The notes below the pieces were generated by a model. It made no database searches, was not told the origin of the DNA, and saw only the letters and a list, made by a program, of their open reading frames with translations. Shown in pieces: positions 3,612 through 44,881 of a DNA stretch of 64,000 bases. Position 1 is the first letter of the stretch; every line of letters starts with the position of its first letter. The position numbers were made by a program, and so were the translations under genes. The stretch is from Candidatus Yanofskybacteria bacterium (lineage in GTDB: Bacteria; Patescibacteriota; Minisyncoccia; 2-02-FULL-40-12; GWA2-44-9). The stretch lies in the NCBI GenBank assembly GCA_903830625.1, contig CAIKUK010000015.1, positions 37 through 64,036 of the forward strand. Direction: 5' to 3'.

Positions 3612-6260
3612 CTACTCGACAACGCTCATTTCGGCCCAATTGTCGCCGGATTTGGCGTCAACAACTATGGGAACACCGAAGTGATGAGCCGATTCCATTA
3701 TTTCTTTTATTTCTCTCGAAACATCCCCGACCATATCGTGCTTCACCTCAAAAAGCAATTCATCGTGGACCTGAAGAAGCATTCGAACCTTATCGCTATA
3801 TTTTTTATCGATAAGCTTCTGAACACCAATCATGGCCAGTTTAATCAGGTCGGCCGATGTACCTTGAATGGGCATATTGATGGCCATGCGTTCCGCCCCG
3901 GCGCGAAGCATGGGCATGGTGGAAAGGATTTCCGGAATCGGCCGACGGCGCCCAAAAAGCGTGGCCACATAACCGTCCTTCCGGGCTTGTTCTTTTACCT
4001 TTTCCAAATACTTCGCCAAGCCGGCAAATTCTTTGTTGTAGTTATCAATAAAAGCCCTGGCCTCATCCCGACTGACACCGGCCGCTCTCTGAAATCCCAA
4101 AAGACCCATGCCATAAAGAACGCCGAAATTCAAAACTTTGGCCTGTCGGCGCATGTTCGGCGTGACTTTATCCGGCACCACGTGAAATACGCCTGCCGCC
4201 GTCCGGGTGTGAATATCCTCGCCCTTTTTGAACGCGCCAGACATGGCCGGATCGCCCGAAAGATGGGCGGCCATGCGCAAATCAAGCTGGGAATAGTCGC
4301 AGGATAGTAAAACAAAATCTTTTTCGGCGATAAAGGCCTTGCGGAATTCTTGGCCGACTTCGGTCCGAATGGGAATGTTCTGTAAATTCGGGTCCTGGCT
4401 CGATAATCGACCCGTGGTCGTGCCGGTCTGGTTATAAGTAGTATGGACTCGGCCACCAGAATCAATCAACGACGGAAATGGCTCAATATAGGTTGTTTTT
4501 AGTTTCTGGAGTTCCCGGTATTTTAAAATTAAGTCAACAATGGGATGTTCGTGAGCCAGTTTTTCCAGTTCGCTATGCGCCGTCGAAAGGGCACCTTTAC
4601 CGGTCTTGCGAACCTTGCTCTTTAAATCCAATTTATCAAACAAAACTACCGATAACTGCTTGGGTGAATTGATATTAAATTCGCCGCCCGCCATTTCGGC
4701 AATCTTTTTTTCAAGGCTATCGATTTCTTTAGTGATTATAGCATCTAGTTTGCGCAATCCTTGGACATCCACCTTGATTCCTGCCCGTTCCATTCGAGCC
4801 AGGATGGGACTTAATGGCAATTCAATAGTGTTCAAAACTTTTTTCAATTCAAATTCTTCCAACTTCGGCTCATAACGTTCTTTAAGCATGGCAATATAGG
4901 CCGGCCGTTTTAAAGGTTCCGGATCCATATCTTCGCTGAACTCCGCAAAGTATAATCTTTCCAGAAGAAAATCTTTAACCTCCGAATTTAGAACGTAAGC
5001 CGCCAGTTTGGTATCAAACGTGAATCCGGCTGGCGCTATCCCTCGCTCCAACGCCCAGCGGGTAATCATCTTAATATCGTGGCCAGTCTTTTTAATTCTG
5101 GAATCAGCCAAAATCTTCCCGAACCGAGCCGAAAGGTTACCATTTTTTAACATTGTCTCCGGGAATCCGAATGACTCGTGTCTGTTTAAGCCCAGCATAA
5201 CCACGCCATCGTGAACATCGATTACAAACTCGCCGGCGGAATCAATCTGGCCCAATATTTTTTCCAATTCTGCCACCGAACCAACGAGAGTGGTTTTAAT
5301 GCCGTCCTTTGAAGTTTTCGGCACATTGGGGGCATCAAATAAACTGGCCGGTTCAGAGGCACTGCCGTCAATCTCGCCCAGACGCTTTATAATACTGTAC
5401 AGGGCCAAATCTTTGAGCAGTTTCTCCAAGGCTGGTTTATCCAAATGTTCCCGCCACTCGGTCTGACCCAAATCAAAATCAATATCGACATCTCGGATAA
5501 TGGTCGACAAATACTTGGAAAAAATTGCTTGGTCTTTGTTGGTTGTTAATCGTTCCACTAGCTTGGGTGTCAGAAGTTTGGGTTGTTTGCCTTTTTTATC
5601 CAGCGCTTCGTAAAGTTTTTCAAGACTGCCAAAATGCTGAATTAAAGCCGAAGCGGTCTTGTCCCCTATCCCTGGCACGCCCGGAATATTGTCGGACGGA
5701 TCGCCTTTCAATCCCTTGTAATCAATGAGCTGATTCGGATTCAAACCATAGCGAGCCACGACTTCTTTTTCGTTATATATCACGGTATCGGTTATGCCTT
5801 TCCGCATCGTAAATACAACCACTTTGTCTTTTTCTACCAGTTGTAAGGTATCCAAATCTCCGGTCATGATAATAACTTGCAAGTCATCAGTGGTCTTGGC
5901 TTGTTCCGCCAGAGCGCCAATCAGGTCGTCGGCTTCAAAACCAGGCTTTTCAAAAATCGGAATGCCGAACTTGGTCAAAATTTCTTTAATATAAGGAATT
6001 TGGAGATAAAGTTCGTCCGGCGCTTTGACGCGATGACTCTTGTATTCGGCGAATTCTTCATGCCGGAAAGTCGCCCCAGGCAAATCGAAAGTGGCGGCGA
6101 TATAATCGGGCTTCAAGTCCTTAATCATTCTAATCATGACCGACATAAAACCAAAGATGGCATTCGTCGGAACGCCGGTGGCAGTATTGAGCGTCGGCGG
6201 CAGGGCATGAAAGGCCCGATGAACCAGCGCGTTGGAATCAATGAGAACAAGTTTTTTCAT
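3612..6260 (-). CDS. polA: DNA polymerase I with 5'-3' exonuclease domain
   Basis: The ORF track runs 3612..6362. The probable true start is the internal MKKLVLIDSNALVHRAFHALPP (5'-nuclease N-terminus) at ~6260, which overlaps the tsaE stop in an ATGA arrangement. Pol I family A motifs are present through the C-terminus. Confidence 0.85.
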   Translation of the reverse strand: MKKLVLIDSNALVHRAFHALPPTLNTATGVPTNAIFGFMSVMIRMIKDLKPDYIAATFDLPGATFRHEEFAEYKSHRVKAPDELYLQIPYIKEILTKFGIPIFEKPGFEADDLIGALAEQAKTTDDLQVIIMTGDLDTLQLVEKDKVVVFTMRKGITDTVIYNEKEVVARYGLNPNQLIDYKGLKGDPSDNIPGVPGIGDKTASALIQHFGSLEKLYEALDKKGKQPKLLTPKLVERLTTNKDQAIFSKYLSTIIRDVDIDFDLGQTEWREHLDKPALEKLLKDLALYSIIKRLGEIDGSASEPASLFDAPNVPKTSKDGIKTTLVGSVAELEKILGQIDSAGEFVIDVHDGVVMLGLNRHESFGFPETMLKNGNLSARFGKILADSRIKKTGHDIKMITRWALERGIAPAGFTFDTKLAAYVLNSEVKDFLLERLYFAEFSEDMDPEPLKRPAYIAMLKERYEPKLEEFELKKVLNTIELPLSPILARMERAGIKVDVQGLRKLDAIITKEIDSLEKKIAEMAGGEFNINSPKQLSVVLFDKLDLKSKVRKTGKGALSTAHSELEKLAHEHPIVDLILKYRELQKLKTTYIEPFPSLIDSGGRVHTTYNQTGTTTGRLSSQDPNLQNIPIRTEVGQEFRKAFIAEKDFVLLSCDYSQLDLRMAAHLSGDPAMSGAFKKGEDIHTRTAAGVFHVVPDKVTPNMRRQAKVLNFGVLYGMGLLGFQRAAGVSRDEARAFIDNYNKEFAGLAKYLEKVKEQARKDGYVATLFGRRRPIPEILSTMPMLRAGAERMAINMPIQGTSADLIKLAMIGVQKLIDKKYSDKVRMLLQVHDELLFEVKHDMVGDVSREIKEIMESAHHFGVPIVVDAKSGDNWAEMSVVE

Positions 6261-19349: not shown

Positions 19350-19422
19350 AGGCCACGGTGGGGATCGCACCCACAAATAGCGGTTTTGCAGACCGCCGCG
19401 TTTACTAATTCGCCACGTGGCC
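19350..19422 (-). tRNA. tRNA-Cys (anticodon GCA)
   Basis: 73 nt. Acceptor GGCCACG/CGTGGCC, anticodon loop CTGCAAA, T-loop TGCGATC (G at position 55 is unusual). Confidence 0.65.
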
Positions 19423-20157
19423 AATTTTTTTTAGAACTGTTTCGGTATTCTTATCAATCCTACTAGGACGTAAGCAGAAATAAGCCTTGAAAATATCAAA
19501 TTTTCTCTGCAAATACAAACCATGACTGTCTCCATACATAAAAGAAAATAGTCTTATTGTATCCCTTGTATTATACCGTAAACGATAAGCCCTATTCCCA
19601 TTATAAACTTTGCCTAGACTAACCCCTAGAGTTTTTTCTAATTTTTCTCTAAGGCCAGTTAGAAAATCTTCACTACCAGAAGTAAAAATTACCGAAAGTC
19701 TTTTTAGAATACTCCTTTGAATAAGCCCTTTGCCTCTTTCTAGATACACGCAACCATCCCCATCAAAGTACCCTCGAACAAAATGGGGGAGGACACTAGA
19801 AGGAATACTAGGGAATTTAACTGTCAAAGATTTATCTGGATACATCCCCAAACCAAGCAAGTCATCGTATAAAGCCCTATTACCGATTCTCAAGGAGTAA
19901 GCGGTCCTAGTTTTATAACTTCTGTTTTGATGTTTAAAATGCACAAGTCTTGGTTTTCTTTCTACCACTCTATGCTCTGACCTTAACAGCACCTTTATCT
20001 TTTCGACTGTAGATTTGTCAACGCTCGTGACATTAATATAACTACCTCTCTCGGACTTATACATGCTCCCGTCCGCAAATAAGTAACCCAAAATATAGGC
20101 CATTTCTGGTGTCCAACTCTGGAAAAACTTTTCATCGATTTTATATTTGATACCCAC
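19405..20157 (-). CDS. LAGLIDADG family homing endonuclease (two-motif, free-standing)
   Basis: Motifs LGYLFADGS and VRGYFDGDGCV. The N-terminus KYKIDEKFF resembles I-CreI-like starts. The last 6 codons overlap the 5' end of tRNA-Cys. The GTG start lies inside a 9-bp perfect palindrome. Confidence 0.7.
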   Translation of the reverse strand: MGIKYKIDEKFFQSWTPEMAYILGYLFADGSMYKSERGSYINVTSVDKSTVEKIKVLLRSEHRVVERKPRLVHFKHQNRSYKTRTAYSLRIGNRALYDDLLGLGMYPDKSLTVKFPSIPSSVLPHFVRGYFDGDGCVYLERGKGLIQRSILKRLSVIFTSGSEDFLTGLREKLEKTLGVSLGKVYNGNRAYRLRYNTRDTIRLFSFMYGDSHGLYLQRKFDIFKAYFCLRPSRIDKNTETVLKKIGHVAN

Positions 20158-22194: not shown

Positions 22195-22986
22195 ATGCAA
22201 CCTGATAAAAATCAACCGATTGGCGTTTTTGACTCTGGCCTGGGCGGTTTAAGCATTCTCCGGGAACTTAGGGAGCTTCTTCCGCACGAAAACTTCATTT
22301 TCCTGGCCGATCAGGCTTATGTTCCTTACGGCGAGAAAACTCCGGCCGAACTGATTGACCGCTGCCTAAAAATCGGTGAATTCTTAAAAAACCAGGATAT
22401 TAAATTGATGGTGGTCGCCTGCAATACAGCTACGTGCTATGCCCTTCCCGCATTGCGCCAGAAATATGCCCTGCTTATAGTCGGCACGGTGCCGGCCATA
22501 AAACCGGCATCCGAGAAAACAAAAACGGGCGTTATTGGAATTATCTCCACCGAAGCGACTTCAAAAAGCAAAACATTGGCTGATTTGATAACAGCTCATG
22601 CCCGCGATAAACAAGTTATAAATATTGGCTGTCCTAATCTTGAAGACACAGTTGAAGCTGGGGGATTGGATTCTACCGATACCAATGCTCTGCTTGAAAA
22701 ATATCTTGAACCAATCAAACAATCTTCAGCCGACTGTTTGGTTTTAGGTTGTACTCATTATCCATTCTTAAAACCAGCTATTGTCCAAGTGATGGAACGA
22801 GAAATAGAAATAATAGACTCAGGCGAGGCCATCGCCAAGCGGGTAAAAACATTGTTGGCTAATAACGAAACCTCTGCATCCGAAGGCGCAGTCAAGTATT
22901 TCACCACCAGCGAACCGGACCAATTTAATAACATCGCTTCAAAGCTCCTTAAAGAAAAGATTAAGGCTAAAACTGTTCAAATTTAG
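22195..22986 (+). CDS. murI: Glutamate racemase
   Basis: IGVFDSGLGGLSIL ... VVACNTAT ... LGCTHYP, the hallmark MurI motifs. Confidence 0.85.
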   Translation: MQPDKNQPIGVFDSGLGGLSILRELRELLPHENFIFLADQAYVPYGEKTPAELIDRCLKIGEFLKNQDIKLMVVACNTATCYALPALRQKYALLIVGTVPAIKPASEKTKTGVIGIISTEATSKSKTLADLITAHARDKQVINIGCPNLEDTVEAGGLDSTDTNALLEKYLEPIKQSSADCLVLGCTHYPFLKPAIVQVMEREIEIIDSGEAIAKRVKTLLANNETSASEGAVKYFTTSEPDQFNNIASKLLKEKIKAKTVQI

Positions 22987-23001
22987 GTGCGACTAATAAT
23001 G

Positions 23002-23090
23002 CGGAGAAGGAGGGATTCGAACCCTCGAGGGGGTTTAAGCCCCCTACATCTTTAGCAAAGATGCTCGATAGACCACTCCGACACTTCTCC
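23002..23090 (-). tRNA. tRNA-Ser (anticodon GCT)
   Basis: 89 nt class II: acceptor GGAGAAG/CTTCTCC, anticodon loop TTGCTAA, long variable arm, T-loop TTCGAAT, discriminator G. Confidence 0.75.
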
Positions 23091-23110
23091 CAAAGTTTCA
23101 AAATTATAGC

Positions 23111-24112
23111 TTAATTGTAGTACTTCTTCAAATGTTTTGGATTATGCGAACCAATCATTTTAAAATATCTTTCGACATCTTGCTTACTATTTAATCTAAT
23201 GTGTATACCCGACACAGAAGGGGACATACCTAAATCTCTTAAAATACCAAGCACAGATTCTCTGAGAGGTGCAGAAGCACTGGCAAAATCAATCTTTTTA
23301 TAGGAATACCATTTATTATTTACTTTGTATTTGTTAGTGAATATACAACCATCAGTGTCTACGAGTCCTCGAATACATGCTCTTGAAAATTTAGTATTAC
23401 TTTTTATCCATGATGGTATATCAAATTGTTGCCATACTTTATTGCCAATAACTATCCCGAGGGAGTGCAGATACTTGACCAGGTTACTTCGAGAGATAAG
23501 TAATGTGTTTGTAGACGATTTTATTCTATGGGTAACGCTTGGCTCAACGCCAAATAGCTTCTTCATTAGTTTCTTAACAAAATAACTGTACTCGAGATCA
23601 TCAACATGATGTAATGTTATCGAAATTTGTCTCTCTGTTGTTCCTCCGTCACCCATTAAAACTCCAAAGAATTCTGATAACGCCACTGAAGGCTTGGGTT
23701 TTCGGAAGAGGAGTGGAATTAAAATAGCATTCAGATTAAATTTACCTTCTTTATTCCACCATTTTTGCCAACGCTTTTTTCTATATTCAGGATTAACGGG
23801 AAATTTACCGTATTTTCGCATCACTGTTGCCGCTCCTTTTTTCCCTCCTTCGTAGGTGTACCAGTATCTACCCTTTATTTCTATGTCTTTCGGAAGAGGG
23901 ATAGACGACTTTCTCGAGAGATATTGAGCGACGGCCAGGGGCATAGAACCTTTTTCTTTCTTCCAGTATTCGATGGTCTTTCGATCTACTCCGAATATTT
24001 TAATAAGATTTTGCGAACCAATGCCTAGTTTATTTTCTACGGAATTAATAAATGAGGTCTGTTTACCTTTTTTAAACACTATTCGTTTACTAGAATTAAA
24101 CCGCTCTATCAT
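23111..24112 (-). CDS. LAGLIDADG family homing endonuclease (two-motif) with N-terminal extension
   Basis: Motifs FFGVLMGDGG and IRGLVDTDGCI. 333 aa. The gene sits between two Ser-type tRNA genes. Confidence 0.65.
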   Translation of the reverse strand: MIERFNSSKRIVFKKGKQTSFINSVENKLGIGSQNLIKIFGVDRKTIEYWKKEKGSMPLAVAQYLSRKSSIPLPKDIEIKGRYWYTYEGGKKGAATVMRKYGKFPVNPEYRKKRWQKWWNKEGKFNLNAILIPLLFRKPKPSVALSEFFGVLMGDGGTTERQISITLHHVDDLEYSYFVKKLMKKLFGVEPSVTHRIKSSTNTLLISRSNLVKYLHSLGIVIGNKVWQQFDIPSWIKSNTKFSRACIRGLVDTDGCIFTNKYKVNNKWYSYKKIDFASASAPLRESVLGILRDLGMSPSVSGIHIRLNSKQDVERYFKMIGSHNPKHLKKYYN

Positions 24113-24188
24113 ACTCCCATTTTACCACAAAAAGTGGCTGGTATTATCCACATGGAAATGCTATAATACCTAATAAACCAAGAGTTTT

Positions 24189-24279
24189 GGAGGAGTGCGT
24201 GAGTGGATAAAAACGAGCAGTTTACTAAACTGCCAAGCTCGCAAGAGCTTCGTGGGTTCGAATCCCACCTCCTCCGCCA
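24189..24279 (+). tRNA. Class II Ser-like tRNA with apparent ACT anticodon (atypical)
   Basis: 91 nt including an encoded CCA. Acceptor GGAGGAG/CTCCTCC, 3-bp D-stem, anticodon stem GCAGT/ACTGC with loop TTACTAA, long variable arm, T-loop TTCGAAT, G73. It differs from the neighbouring tRNA-Ser(GCT) loop by G34 to A. Confidence 0.5.
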
Positions 24280-24339
24280 AAACAATGATTTAATTCTTAA
24301 AGGTCGAGTACTTGATTAACTTAATCTAACTATAAAACT

Positions 24340-24495
24340 ATGGTAAAAGGAAACTTTATTGGTGCGGCAATTGTTGCAATCATCTACACGGTCTATATTG
24401 TATGGAACCCCCTTCCAACGAAATCGCAAACAGCGTTAATATTGGTGATTCTTAACGCTTTAACTATCGTATTGTTGTCTTTTGCGTTCAAATAA
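24340..24495 (+). CDS. Possible 51-aa small membrane protein
   Basis: MVKGNFIGAAIVAIIYTVYIVWNPLPTKSQTALILVILNALTIVLLSFAFK has two hydrophobic helices. It ends 6 nt before the next membrane-protein gene. No clear ribosome-binding site. Confidence 0.25.
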   Translation: MVKGNFIGAAIVAIIYTVYIVWNPLPTKSQTALILVILNALTIVLLSFAFK

Positions 24496-44760: not shown

Positions 44761-44881
44761 AAGCTAGCAAAAACCTTAAAAATCTGATAAAATAGATAAT
44801 GAAAACGGGCTATGGTGTAGCAGTAGCACGCACCGTTCGGGTCGGTGTAGCTCCGATGCAATTTCGGATAGCCCGACATAT

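Follow-up and report, generated by a model that had tools for sequence, protein, structure and literature searches.

A class II tRNA-Ser(ACU) gene in a Patescibacteria-type contig and the widespread, probably functional isoacceptor family to which it belongs

The window, meaning the whole stretch of 64,000 nucleotides analysed here, looks like a contig of Patescibacteria (CPR) type, with a short IF-2, ComF, type IV pilus genes, the standard genetic code and a GC content of 45%. ARAGORN calls eight tRNA genes in it, including a tRNA-Ser(act) and a tRNA-Ser(gct) that lie 1.1 kb apart in divergent orientation and are separated by a gene for a LAGLIDADG protein. The locus comprises the following features:

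24189..24279, plus strand: tRNA-Ser(ACU) gene, class II, G73, CCA encoded (ARAGORN, Rfam tRNA model, minimum free energy of the cloverleaf, co-varying family)
24222..24228, plus strand: anticodon loop TTACTAA (read from the sequence and from the covariance-model alignment)
24224-24226, plus strand: anticodon A34-C35-U36, with A37 and A38 next in the loop
24159..24167, plus strand: candidate extended -10-like promoter element TGCTATAAT, 21 nt upstream of the mature 5' end (sequence)
23001..23090, minus strand: canonical tRNA-Ser(GCU), loop TTGCTAA, CCA not encoded (ARAGORN; Rfam, 53.8 bits)
23111..24112, minus strand: free-standing LAGLIDADG homing-endonuclease-like gene, 333 aa (open reading frame; Pfam LAGLIDADG_3, PF14528, E=9e-10)

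The tRNA-Ser(ACU) gene folds into a complete cloverleaf composed of a 7-bp acceptor stem (GGAGGAG/CTCCTCC), a 3-bp D stem (CGT/ACG), a 5-bp anticodon stem (GCAGT/ACTGC), an 18-nt variable arm that includes a 6-bp stem, and a T arm (GTGGG-TTCGAAT-CCCAC) followed by G73 and the encoded CCA. This fold has a minimum free energy of -36.2 kcal/mol, with a z-score of -4.15 relative to shuffled sequences. The Rfam model RF00005 matches positions 24189-24276 with 49.6 bits against a gathering score of 29 (E=3e-9), and the model alignment places A-C-U on positions 34-36, within the seven-base loop UUACUAA. Both Ser tRNAs were missed by a whole-window Rfam scan at the gathering threshold, an effect of the speed filters, and a rerun of 22900-24400 with permissive filters returned both well above threshold. 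A sequence-only reading of this DNA had described a class II Ser-type tRNA with an ACT anticodon, and the call is borne out by ARAGORN and the Rfam tRNA model. Every element of the cloverleaf that it listed (7-bp acceptor, 3-bp D stem, long variable arm, TTCGAAT, G73, CCA) is present, and the covariance alignment puts ACU, not another triplet such as GCU or UGA, at positions 34-36. Its canonical tRNA-Ser(GCT) neighbour with a TTGCTAA loop is confirmed by ARAGORN, Rfam and the sequence, and its adjacent homing-endonuclease gene by the Pfam LAGLIDADG_3 match and two motifs in the reading frame.

The long variable arm with its stem, the 3-bp D stem and G73 assign the gene to class II tRNA-Ser, and it keeps the GG of the D loop, TTCGAAT as its T loop, and T-stem pairs resembling those of other Ser tRNAs. 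Seryl-tRNA synthetase (SerRS) finds its identity elements in the variable arm and acceptor stem and does not contact the anticodon, with the acceptor pairs G1-C72, G2-C71 and A3-U70 known from the E. coli and T. thermophilus enzymes. These pairs are present in the window tRNA (GGA...TCC), and A3-U70 occurs in 103 of the 106 listed members of the ACT family described below, although the search pattern does not force it. Because all known SerRS identity features are present and the synthetase is blind to the anticodon, the tRNA is predicted to be serylated. Two other assignments were considered and do not fit. tRNA-Sec and allo-tRNAs combine an acceptor stem of more than 7 bp with a short T stem, and their anticodon is UCA or another recoding triplet; their 8/5, 8/4 or 9/3 acceptor/T geometry is incompatible with the standard 7/5 geometry and ACU anticodon found here. 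A tRNA pseudogene or decayed duplicate is incompatible with the pairing of all stems, the covariation of the family stems and the conservation of orthologues.

The candidate promoter element TGCTATAAT was not listed by a promoter consensus scan, since no -35 hexamer matched. The same type of scan identifies TTGAAG-17-TATAAT upstream of the window tRNA-Ser(GCT), and GCTATAAT, similar to TGCTATAAT, is positioned just upstream of that gene. No stem is the same in the two Ser tRNAs, whether acceptor, D, anticodon, variable or T, which argues that the ACT gene is no fresh G34A copy of its neighbour. In the window, tRNA-Ser(ACU) also lies near murI; metagenome contigs anchored on MurI (38-56% identity) contain no Ser tRNAs, so this linkage is not conserved.

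We searched GTDB species genomes, one per species, with the pattern TTACTAA-N{20,32}-GGTTCGAATCC-N8-CCG, which has 21 fixed bases and for which our arithmetic gives about 3.5 chance matches in 596 Gb. At least 120 loci match, and ARAGORN calls Ser(act) in 114 of them among the matches listed. The pattern fixes the ACT anticodon, the T loop and G73, and its counts are lower bounds rather than measures of prevalence; some orthologues carry C32 (CTACTAA), so a TTACTAA pattern undercounts the family. An anticodon arm made blind to A or G at position 34 (GAGCAGTTTNCTAAACTGCCAAG, N at 34) gave 0 matches in JGI metagenome contigs. According to the record labels, 64 of the loci listed belong to named Patescibacteria lineages (Paceibacteria, Saccharibacteria, Microgenomates, Nomura-, Zambryski-, Taylor-, Magasanik-, Woese-, Levyi-, Collier- and Roizmanbacteria, and Minisyncoccia). 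Another 27 come from third-party (TPA) genome bins that carry a Gammaproteobacteria or Pseudomonadales label; their GC of 0.35-0.49, tRNA sequences and order of Ser and Arg tRNAs look like Microgenomates, and we suspect that these labels are mistaken. Fourteen loci are labelled Planctomycetota or Verrucomicrobiota, 13 of them at GC 0.50-0.69; locus L035 under these labels has a GC of 0.36 and clusters with viral copies. Carriers of the anticodon are many Patescibacteria and some Planctomycetota and Verrucomicrobiota, and the anticodon is also common in viral (phage) tRNA arrays.

The ACT genes frequently reside among other Ser tRNA genes. Of the 114 ACT genome loci listed, 61 have Ser(gct) in the fetched stretch, which spans at most 8 kb, often at a distance of 100-300 bp, and ACT often forms part of a tandem Ser cluster, such as Ser(tga)-Ser(act)-Ser(gct), with members tens of nucleotides apart. 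ComF lies near ACT in 24 loci among the matches listed.

Alignment of the 106 distinct ACT tRNA sequences from the genome matches listed reveals a strongly co-varying structure. Standard pairs make up 99.4% of 2542 stem cells, and 18 of the 24 stem pairs change on both sides, in 541 cells; four of the stem pairs are fixed by the search pattern and carry no information. None of 500 shuffles reaches the observed pairing and covariation, and sliding the partner by 1-3 columns leaves 35-57% pairing. With pattern-forced columns excluded, the nearest neighbour of an ACT tRNA is another ACT tRNA, not the local GCT, in 113 of the 114 listed, and mean identity is 0.64 between ACT tRNAs, 0.54 between ACT and TGA, and 0.50 between ACT and GCT. 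These nearest-neighbour and identity figures define the ACT tRNAs as an isoacceptor lineage of their own, which by its identities (0.54 versus 0.50) appears somewhat closer to the UGA type than to the GCU type. The nearest relatives of the window tRNA in the census listed are likewise ACT tRNAs, with up to 80% identity. The pairs G30-C40 and U31-A39 of the ACT tRNAs are common to the Ser(UGA) type. They were considered as a family-defining recognition element and rejected, given that Ser(TGA) and Ser(CGA) have both; close relatives with A30-U40 and C32 also oppose G30-C40 as a family mark.

The census pattern also matches at least 120 viral loci in IMG/VR. ARAGORN calls Ser(act) in 119 of those listed, in each case inside a tRNA array, typically Thr-tgt, Gln-ttg, Asn-gtt, Ser-act, Ile-tat, Glu-ttc, Lys-ttt, Arg-tct. 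Control searches of IMG/VR gave 1 match for a composition-matched permuted loop (TTATCAA) and 10 for the Ser(AGA) loop. Only one of the 119 viral Ser(act) loci listed contains Ser(gct), making ACT the only AGY decoder in the fetched stretch of the other 118. Across about 770 tRNA genes in the viral loci listed, the only other anticodon starting with A is that of Arg(acg), encoded in four loci. In the 91 distinct viral copies, pairing holds for 98.9% of the cells in the acceptor, anticodon and T stems, each position showing several pair types. Among the matches listed, the nearest neighbour is of its own kind for 109 of the 114 copies from genomes and for 114 of the 119 from viral contigs. Three bin contigs (L022, L035 and L074) look like phage DNA. 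A BLAST search of 50,697 GenBank phage records with three ACT anticodon arms and a full viral ACT tRNA, non-exhaustive for anticodons as a short-query search, returned only Ser(TGA) and Ser(GCT), including a Ser(GCT) of phage phi92 that matches one ACT-type arm at 22 of 23 bases.

The gene between the two Ser tRNAs provides an anchor that is independent of the anticodon. Its 333-aa product carries two LAGLIDADG-type motifs in one chain (LMGDGG and LVDTDG) and an N-terminal HTH-like region, and the gene lies 77 nt from tRNA-Ser(ACT). The protein has 301 homologues at E<=1e-10, nearly all of about 333 aa, and a Ser tRNA gene is situated directly beside the LAGLIDADG gene in 12 of the 12 homologue loci fetched. 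In the cases examined, the gene is usually 8-30 nt upstream of Ser(GCU), and its Ser-tRNA-adjacent form spans Parcubacteria- and Microgenomates-type lineages. It also occurs in six ACT loci among the matches listed, with about 107 of the 114 ACT loci listed having no such gene nearby. We describe it as a sporadic, well-conserved, free-standing gene for a predicted homing endonuclease; its absence from most ACT loci indicates that it inserted into the intergenic region of the Ser tRNAs and did not give rise to the ACT gene.

The census fixed ACT and so cannot show conservation of A34, and loci picked through LAGLIDADG homologues were used instead (contigs fetched for 12 of the 301). At the five closest homologues fetched (54-79% identity), Ser(ACT) adjoins the LAGLIDADG gene in all five. 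Three of these loci (L286, L270 and L287) share the window arrangement ACT(-), endonuclease(+), GCT(+). L270 and L286 show the order ComF-...-ACT-endonuclease-GCT, with PilM also called in L270, and L287 follows the order ACT-endonuclease-GCT-IF2-...-Cys-Leu as in the window, with no ComF or PilM within the stretch fetched. Seven more distant homologues were fetched (44-52% identity). At six of them, Ser(GCT) lies 8-30 nt downstream of the endonuclease gene, with no ACT within 3 kb, and the seventh (L282) has the same arrangement. The presence of Ser(GCT) without ACT at six of twelve Patescibacteria loci indicates that tRNA-Ser(ACU) is not universal.

The aligned orthologues keep A-C-U, with compensatory changes at acceptor pair 5:68 (G-C to A-U), in the D stem, at pair 30:40 (G-C to A-U) and throughout the variable arm. 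One orthologue (L283) is identical to the window tRNA except for a wholly different, still paired variable arm. Comparison with orthologous loci, which the sequence-only reading had put forward as a check, thus shows co-varying stems and an unchanged ACT in all five of the closest relatives. The sequence comparisons point clearly to purifying selection on both the fold and the anticodon of tRNA-Ser(ACU) genes.

We regard it as likely that the gene encodes a functional elongator tRNA-Ser(ACU) of an old isoacceptor family, inherited vertically and coexisting with tRNA-Ser(GCU). The gene would be transcribed from its own extended -10 promoter, and the transcript would be processed into a canonical class II tRNA. 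SerRS would serylate this tRNA via the long variable arm, the acceptor stem and G73, with the anticodon not read. EF-Tu would then deliver it to the ribosome, where an A34 predicted to be unmodified, beside an A37 that may carry t6A, would pair in Watson-Crick fashion with U3. The tRNA would read AGU and essentially nothing else, and tRNA-Ser(GCU) would cover AGC and, by wobble, AGU. On paper, tRNA-Ser(ACU) is redundant, as the GCU tRNA can read AGU.

Serine AGY may be the one split box in which G34 can become A34. It would tolerate A34 because SerRS ignores the anticodon and ACU barely reads AGA or AGG, which code for Arg. Published identity sets suggest that G34 of the remaining NNY split boxes is either a synthetase identity element or a site of queuosine. 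On balance, we lean slightly towards tRNA-Ser(ACU) being a natural, widespread and selected decoder with an unmodified A34 in a split box.

Earlier work treats this anticodon as absent or very rare. Reviews list the A34 anticodon of the Ser/Arg box as universally missing (PMC8007984), and a GtRNAdb survey of 4047 bacteria by Raval et al. (2026) found split-box ANN tRNAs to be extremely rare and sporadic, in every case together with the GNN tRNA (bioRxiv 10.64898/2026.05.15.725136). The rarity of bacterial A34 outside Arg-ACG, as stated in the sequence-only reading, agrees with both. Over-expressed Ser-tRNA(ACU) improved the growth of E. coli, and other split-box ANN tRNAs were mostly neutral or harmful, with Ile-tRNA(AAU) the sole further growth-improver (bioRxiv 10.64898/2026.05.15.725136). 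Schmitt et al. (2024) found that an orthogonal ACU tRNA in E. coli reads AGU at 9.4% and AGG at 0.36%, with AGC and AGA below detection and A34 unmodified (PMC11066159). Unmodified A34 may also read beyond U, as in the Mycoplasma Thr and E. coli Gly-ACC tRNAs, to go by the citations in PMC11066159. tRNA-Ser(ACU) itself is listed in passing for an Acidithiobacillus tRNA array (PMC4758250) and appears in a table for the chlorovirus ATCV-1 (PMC4810235). It goes unmentioned in a 2026 paper on the tRNA genes of 95 complete genomes of Patescibacteria. In a literature search of incomplete coverage, which leaves an earlier description possible, we found no paper that treats tRNA-Ser(ACU) as a conserved family.

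Codon usage at the carrier loci bears on what the tRNA would decode. In the window, AGT and AGC occur at 10.7 and 10.3 per 1000 codons, with AGT making up 51% of AGY. The AGT share is 64% in low-GC carrier loci (GC <0.5, mostly Patescibacteria), 68% in viral loci and 33% in GC-rich carrier loci of Planctomycetota/Verrucomicrobiota type, where AGC is preferred. AGT/(AGT+AGC) follows how strongly U-ending codons are preferred in general, and AGU is not singled out. Codon-usage matching was rejected as a sufficient explanation, with AGU unpreferred in the window and minor in GC-rich carriers. Per 1000 codons, the window has about 8.4-8.7 of the Arg codon AGA; low-GC carrier loci have 11.9 and viral loci 17.2.

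An inosine-modified decoder, one of three explanations offered by the sequence-only reading, is unlikely. The tRNA would be functional and its A34 converted to inosine by a TadA-like enzyme, yielding a Ser(ICU) that reads AGU, AGC and possibly AGA. Precedent exists, as the well-studied, long-kept bacterial A34 tRNAs (Arg-ACG and Leu-AAG) are all I34 substrates and the split-box Phe-tRNA(AAA) is deaminated in E. coli (bioRxiv 10.64898/2026.05.15.725136). The loop U33-A34-C35-N36-A37 resembles that of Arg-ACG, and four of the viral loci listed also encode Arg(acg). The substrate loop of TadA is U33-A34-C35-G36, however, and position 36 of tRNA-Ser(ACU) is U, not G. ICU would also read AGA (Arg), a codon that carriers use 8-17 times in every 1000. 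Arg(ACG) occurs in 0 of about 130 genome loci, among the matches listed and the anchored loci, and Arg(GCG) in 10. Common AGA, U36, and Arg(gcg) without Arg(acg) at the genome loci together render inosine unlikely. A scan for the TadA-like motif HAE...PCxxC in the window and 120 loci, which comprise little sequence per genome, returned a single Cdd-like ORF, at L091, and no such deaminase ORF in the 64-kb window. The engineered ACU tRNA in E. coli kept its A34 and read neither AGC nor AGA (PMC11066159).

A second alternative, quite improbable as the main cause, is that A34 is kept to escape an anticodon-loop nuclease or toxin that cuts tRNA-Ser(GCU), with the ACU tRNA serving as a resistant spare in phage-host or episymbiont-host conflict. 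This concerns the cause of selection, and normal AGU decoding could go on alongside it. Evasion of host anticodon nucleases is known for phage tRNAs whose anticodon loop is altered. tRNA-Ser(ACU) is strongly enriched in phage tRNA arrays, where, among the matches listed, Ser alone has the odd anticodon. Its coexistence with the GCU tRNA in Patescibacteria, which live on other cells, also fits such a conflict. However, neither the window nor the loci yielded a nuclease specific for Ser(GCU), and the chromosomal copies are old and syntenic and are not linked to defence islands.

We consider very unlikely a Ser-charged tRNA with a non-decoding job, whether as an aminoacyl donor for cell-wall, lipid or cyclodipeptide synthesis or as a regulatory tRNA. 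Decoding redundancy where Ser(GCU) is present, murI nearby in the window and a cyclodipeptide synthase gene directly after tRNA-Ser(GCT) at one related locus could each hint at such a job. Against these observations, the murI linkage is not conserved, the D-loop GG, T loop and Ser-like T-stem pairs are retained with no non-proteinogenic hallmarks, and in 118 of the 119 viral loci listed the stretch fetched has no other AGY decoder. An ACU anticodon also decodes AGU in vivo (PMC11066159).

The other two explanations of the sequence-only reading, a recent duplicate with an anticodon mutation (a G34A mutant of Ser(GCT)) and a non-functional by-product of the homing endonuclease, are prompted by a LAGLIDADG gene 77 nt away and a Ser(GCT) gene 1.1 kb away, and a decaying copy of either kind is extremely improbable: every stem is intact, the sequence differs from the local GCT gene throughout, compensatory change runs across an ACT family whose members are nearest to one another, ACT is kept in orthologues at 54-79% endonuclease identity, the endonuclease gene is absent from most ACT loci listed (about 107 of 114), and its distant homologues adjoin Ser(GCT) with no ACT within 3 kb.

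A functional tRNA-Ser(ACU) can be set beside several known systems. With tRNA-Ser(GCU) it shares class II architecture, G73, the pairs G1-C72, G2-C71 and A3-U70, the loop bases C35-U36-A37-A38, often the same cluster and presumably the same SerRS; it differs in having A34 for G34 and in its separate sequence lineage. Pair 30:40 is mostly C-G in GCT tRNAs and G-C in ACT tRNAs, as in Ser(UGA) and Ser(CGA). Arg(ACG), with TadA, and the Leu(AAG) of Lactobacillales also keep a gene-encoded A34 over long evolutionary times. These two serve four-codon boxes and have A34 converted to inosine, whereas Ser(ACU) belongs to the split Ser/Arg box and has U36, an inosine in it would misread AGA, and the carriers examined use Arg(GCG).

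Mycoplasma tRNA-Thr(AGU), as far as it is covered in PMC11066159, is another natural tRNA of bacteria; its A34 probably functions unmodified, and the genome that carries it is reduced. Its codon box has four members, which makes loose reading harmless, and the tRNA stands in for its G34 counterpart; Ser(ACU), by contrast, serves a two-codon box and coexists with the G34 tRNA. The Acidithiobacillus and ATCV-1 entries share the anticodon and amino-acid type and come from mobile or viral arrays like the IMG/VR cases. They differ in being list entries only, with no tie to a family or to Patescibacteria, and are likened here by description rather than by sequence. The engineered E. coli ACU tRNAs share the anticodon and are AGU-specific, unmodified, and non-toxic or beneficial, but have an artificial body, either that of M. 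jannaschii tRNA-Tyr or that of a G34A E. coli Ser tRNA (PMC11066159; bioRxiv 10.64898/2026.05.15.725136).

The genome and viral matches listed comprise more than 230 natural tRNA-Ser(ACU) genes, carried by lineages that tRNA surveys barely cover: Patescibacteria, Planctomycetota/Verrucomicrobiota bins and uncultivated phages. The surveys cited above used GtRNAdb-type databases, composed mostly of cultured organisms (PMC8007984; bioRxiv 10.64898/2026.05.15.725136). A conserved and widespread isoacceptor is an outcome beyond the three explanations of the sequence-only reading.

Wobble A is avoided almost universally unless it is converted to inosine, and the reason is a long-standing question. 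If the proposed role is correct, tRNA-Ser(ACU) would be a natural exception with which the causes of A34 avoidance (mistranslation, synthetase identity, modification or ribosome geometry) could be tested, and its unmodified A34 in a split box would represent an anticodon class that reviews treat as universally prohibited. Its persistence would follow from serine being the only NNY split-box amino acid with an anticodon-blind synthetase and from ACU sparing the Arg codons. The finding would also bear on annotation pipelines that flag such tRNAs as suspect, and on how codon adaptation is estimated for Patescibacteria and phages. A natural system for testing why A34 is avoided elsewhere would then be available in Patescibacteria, in many environmental phages and in some members of Planctomycetota and Verrucomicrobiota.

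The window encodes two LAGLIDADG proteins, both on the reverse strand:

23111-24112, reverse strand: gene for a 333-aa LAGLIDADG protein, one of a large family of uniform length
19405-20157, reverse strand: second LAGLIDADG ORF, 250 aa, between IF-2 and tRNA-Cys

The 333-aa protein has 301 homologues at E<=1e-10, uniform in length, and in all loci examined its gene type directly adjoins a Ser tRNA gene. These comprise loci anchored on homologues of the protein (L270, L272, L274, L276, L277, L279, L282, L283, L286, L287, and L288) and further loci with the gene beside a Ser tRNA (L013, L020, L031, L043, L103, and L113). Among them, the LAGLIDADG gene usually precedes Ser(GCU) by 8-30 nt and shares its orientation, and the adjacency to a Ser tRNA gene is common to Parcubacteria- and Microgenomates-type lineages. 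The protein looks like a free-standing homing endonuclease with the Ser-tRNA region as its homing site. On a Pacebacteria contig (L277 and L278), tRNA-Ser(GCT) is immediately followed on its downstream side by a gene for a cyclodipeptide synthase (Pfam CDPS; 4103-4792), an enzyme whose substrates are aminoacyl-tRNAs.

The 3' end of the 250-aa ORF runs 18 nt into the tRNA-Cys gene. At the equivalent spot, locus L287 carries a GIY-YIG gene (5750-6082) and locus L072 a bare 105-nt spacer (2435-2540). The IF-2/tRNA-Cys intergenic site seems to be a recurrent landing place for differing endonuclease families.

Both Ser tRNA genes of the window score 50-54 bits when Rfam searches their region alone, but are missed by the whole-window scan (1-64000, gathering threshold), which lists five of the eight ARAGORN tRNAs and also misses one further gene:

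44806-44877: tRNA-Pro(cgg), detected by ARAGORN

In the IMG/VR matches listed (L122-L241), which lie on uncultivated viral contigs as long as 320 kb, the tRNA arrays regularly include tRNA-Ser(ACU). Its usual neighbour is Asn(gtt), and Ser(GCU) is nearly always absent from the same stretch. BLAST of deposited GenBank phages found none with tRNA-Ser(ACU). Two of the viral contigs bear further ARAGORN calls: on L125 (~6894) a class II tRNA whose anticodon has four bases (gaga), and on L132 (~2704) an amber suppressor-like CTA-anticodon tRNA ('Pyl').

A set of TPA_asm loci from third-party genome bins (L010, L014, L023, L032, and ~23 others) are titled 'uncultured Gammaproteobacteria' or 'Pseudomonadales'. 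Their GC is 0.35-0.49, their Ser/Arg tRNA clusters are Patescibacteria-like, and the nearest ACT tRNA relatives of these bins, own label excluded, are named Patescibacteria in 15 of 25, the commonest outcome. The taxonomic labels look wrong.

tRNA-Ile(UAU) is common in the Patescibacteria and phage loci examined here (L030, L056, L089, L104, and 19 viral loci). The review that lists A34 absences gives the UAU anticodon as missing in prokaryotes (PMC8007984), and surveys built on cultured organisms may have overlooked this tRNA as well. Patescibacteria-type loci also carry tRNA-Arg(GCG), often within a Ser/Arg tRNA cluster (L013, L023, L027, L031, L032, L048, L061, L081, L115, and L279), and Arg(ACG) was never seen among the Patescibacteria-type loci listed. 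The presence of Arg(GCG) and absence of Arg(ACG) suggest that the lineages concerned decode CGY without inosine and that they may lack TadA.
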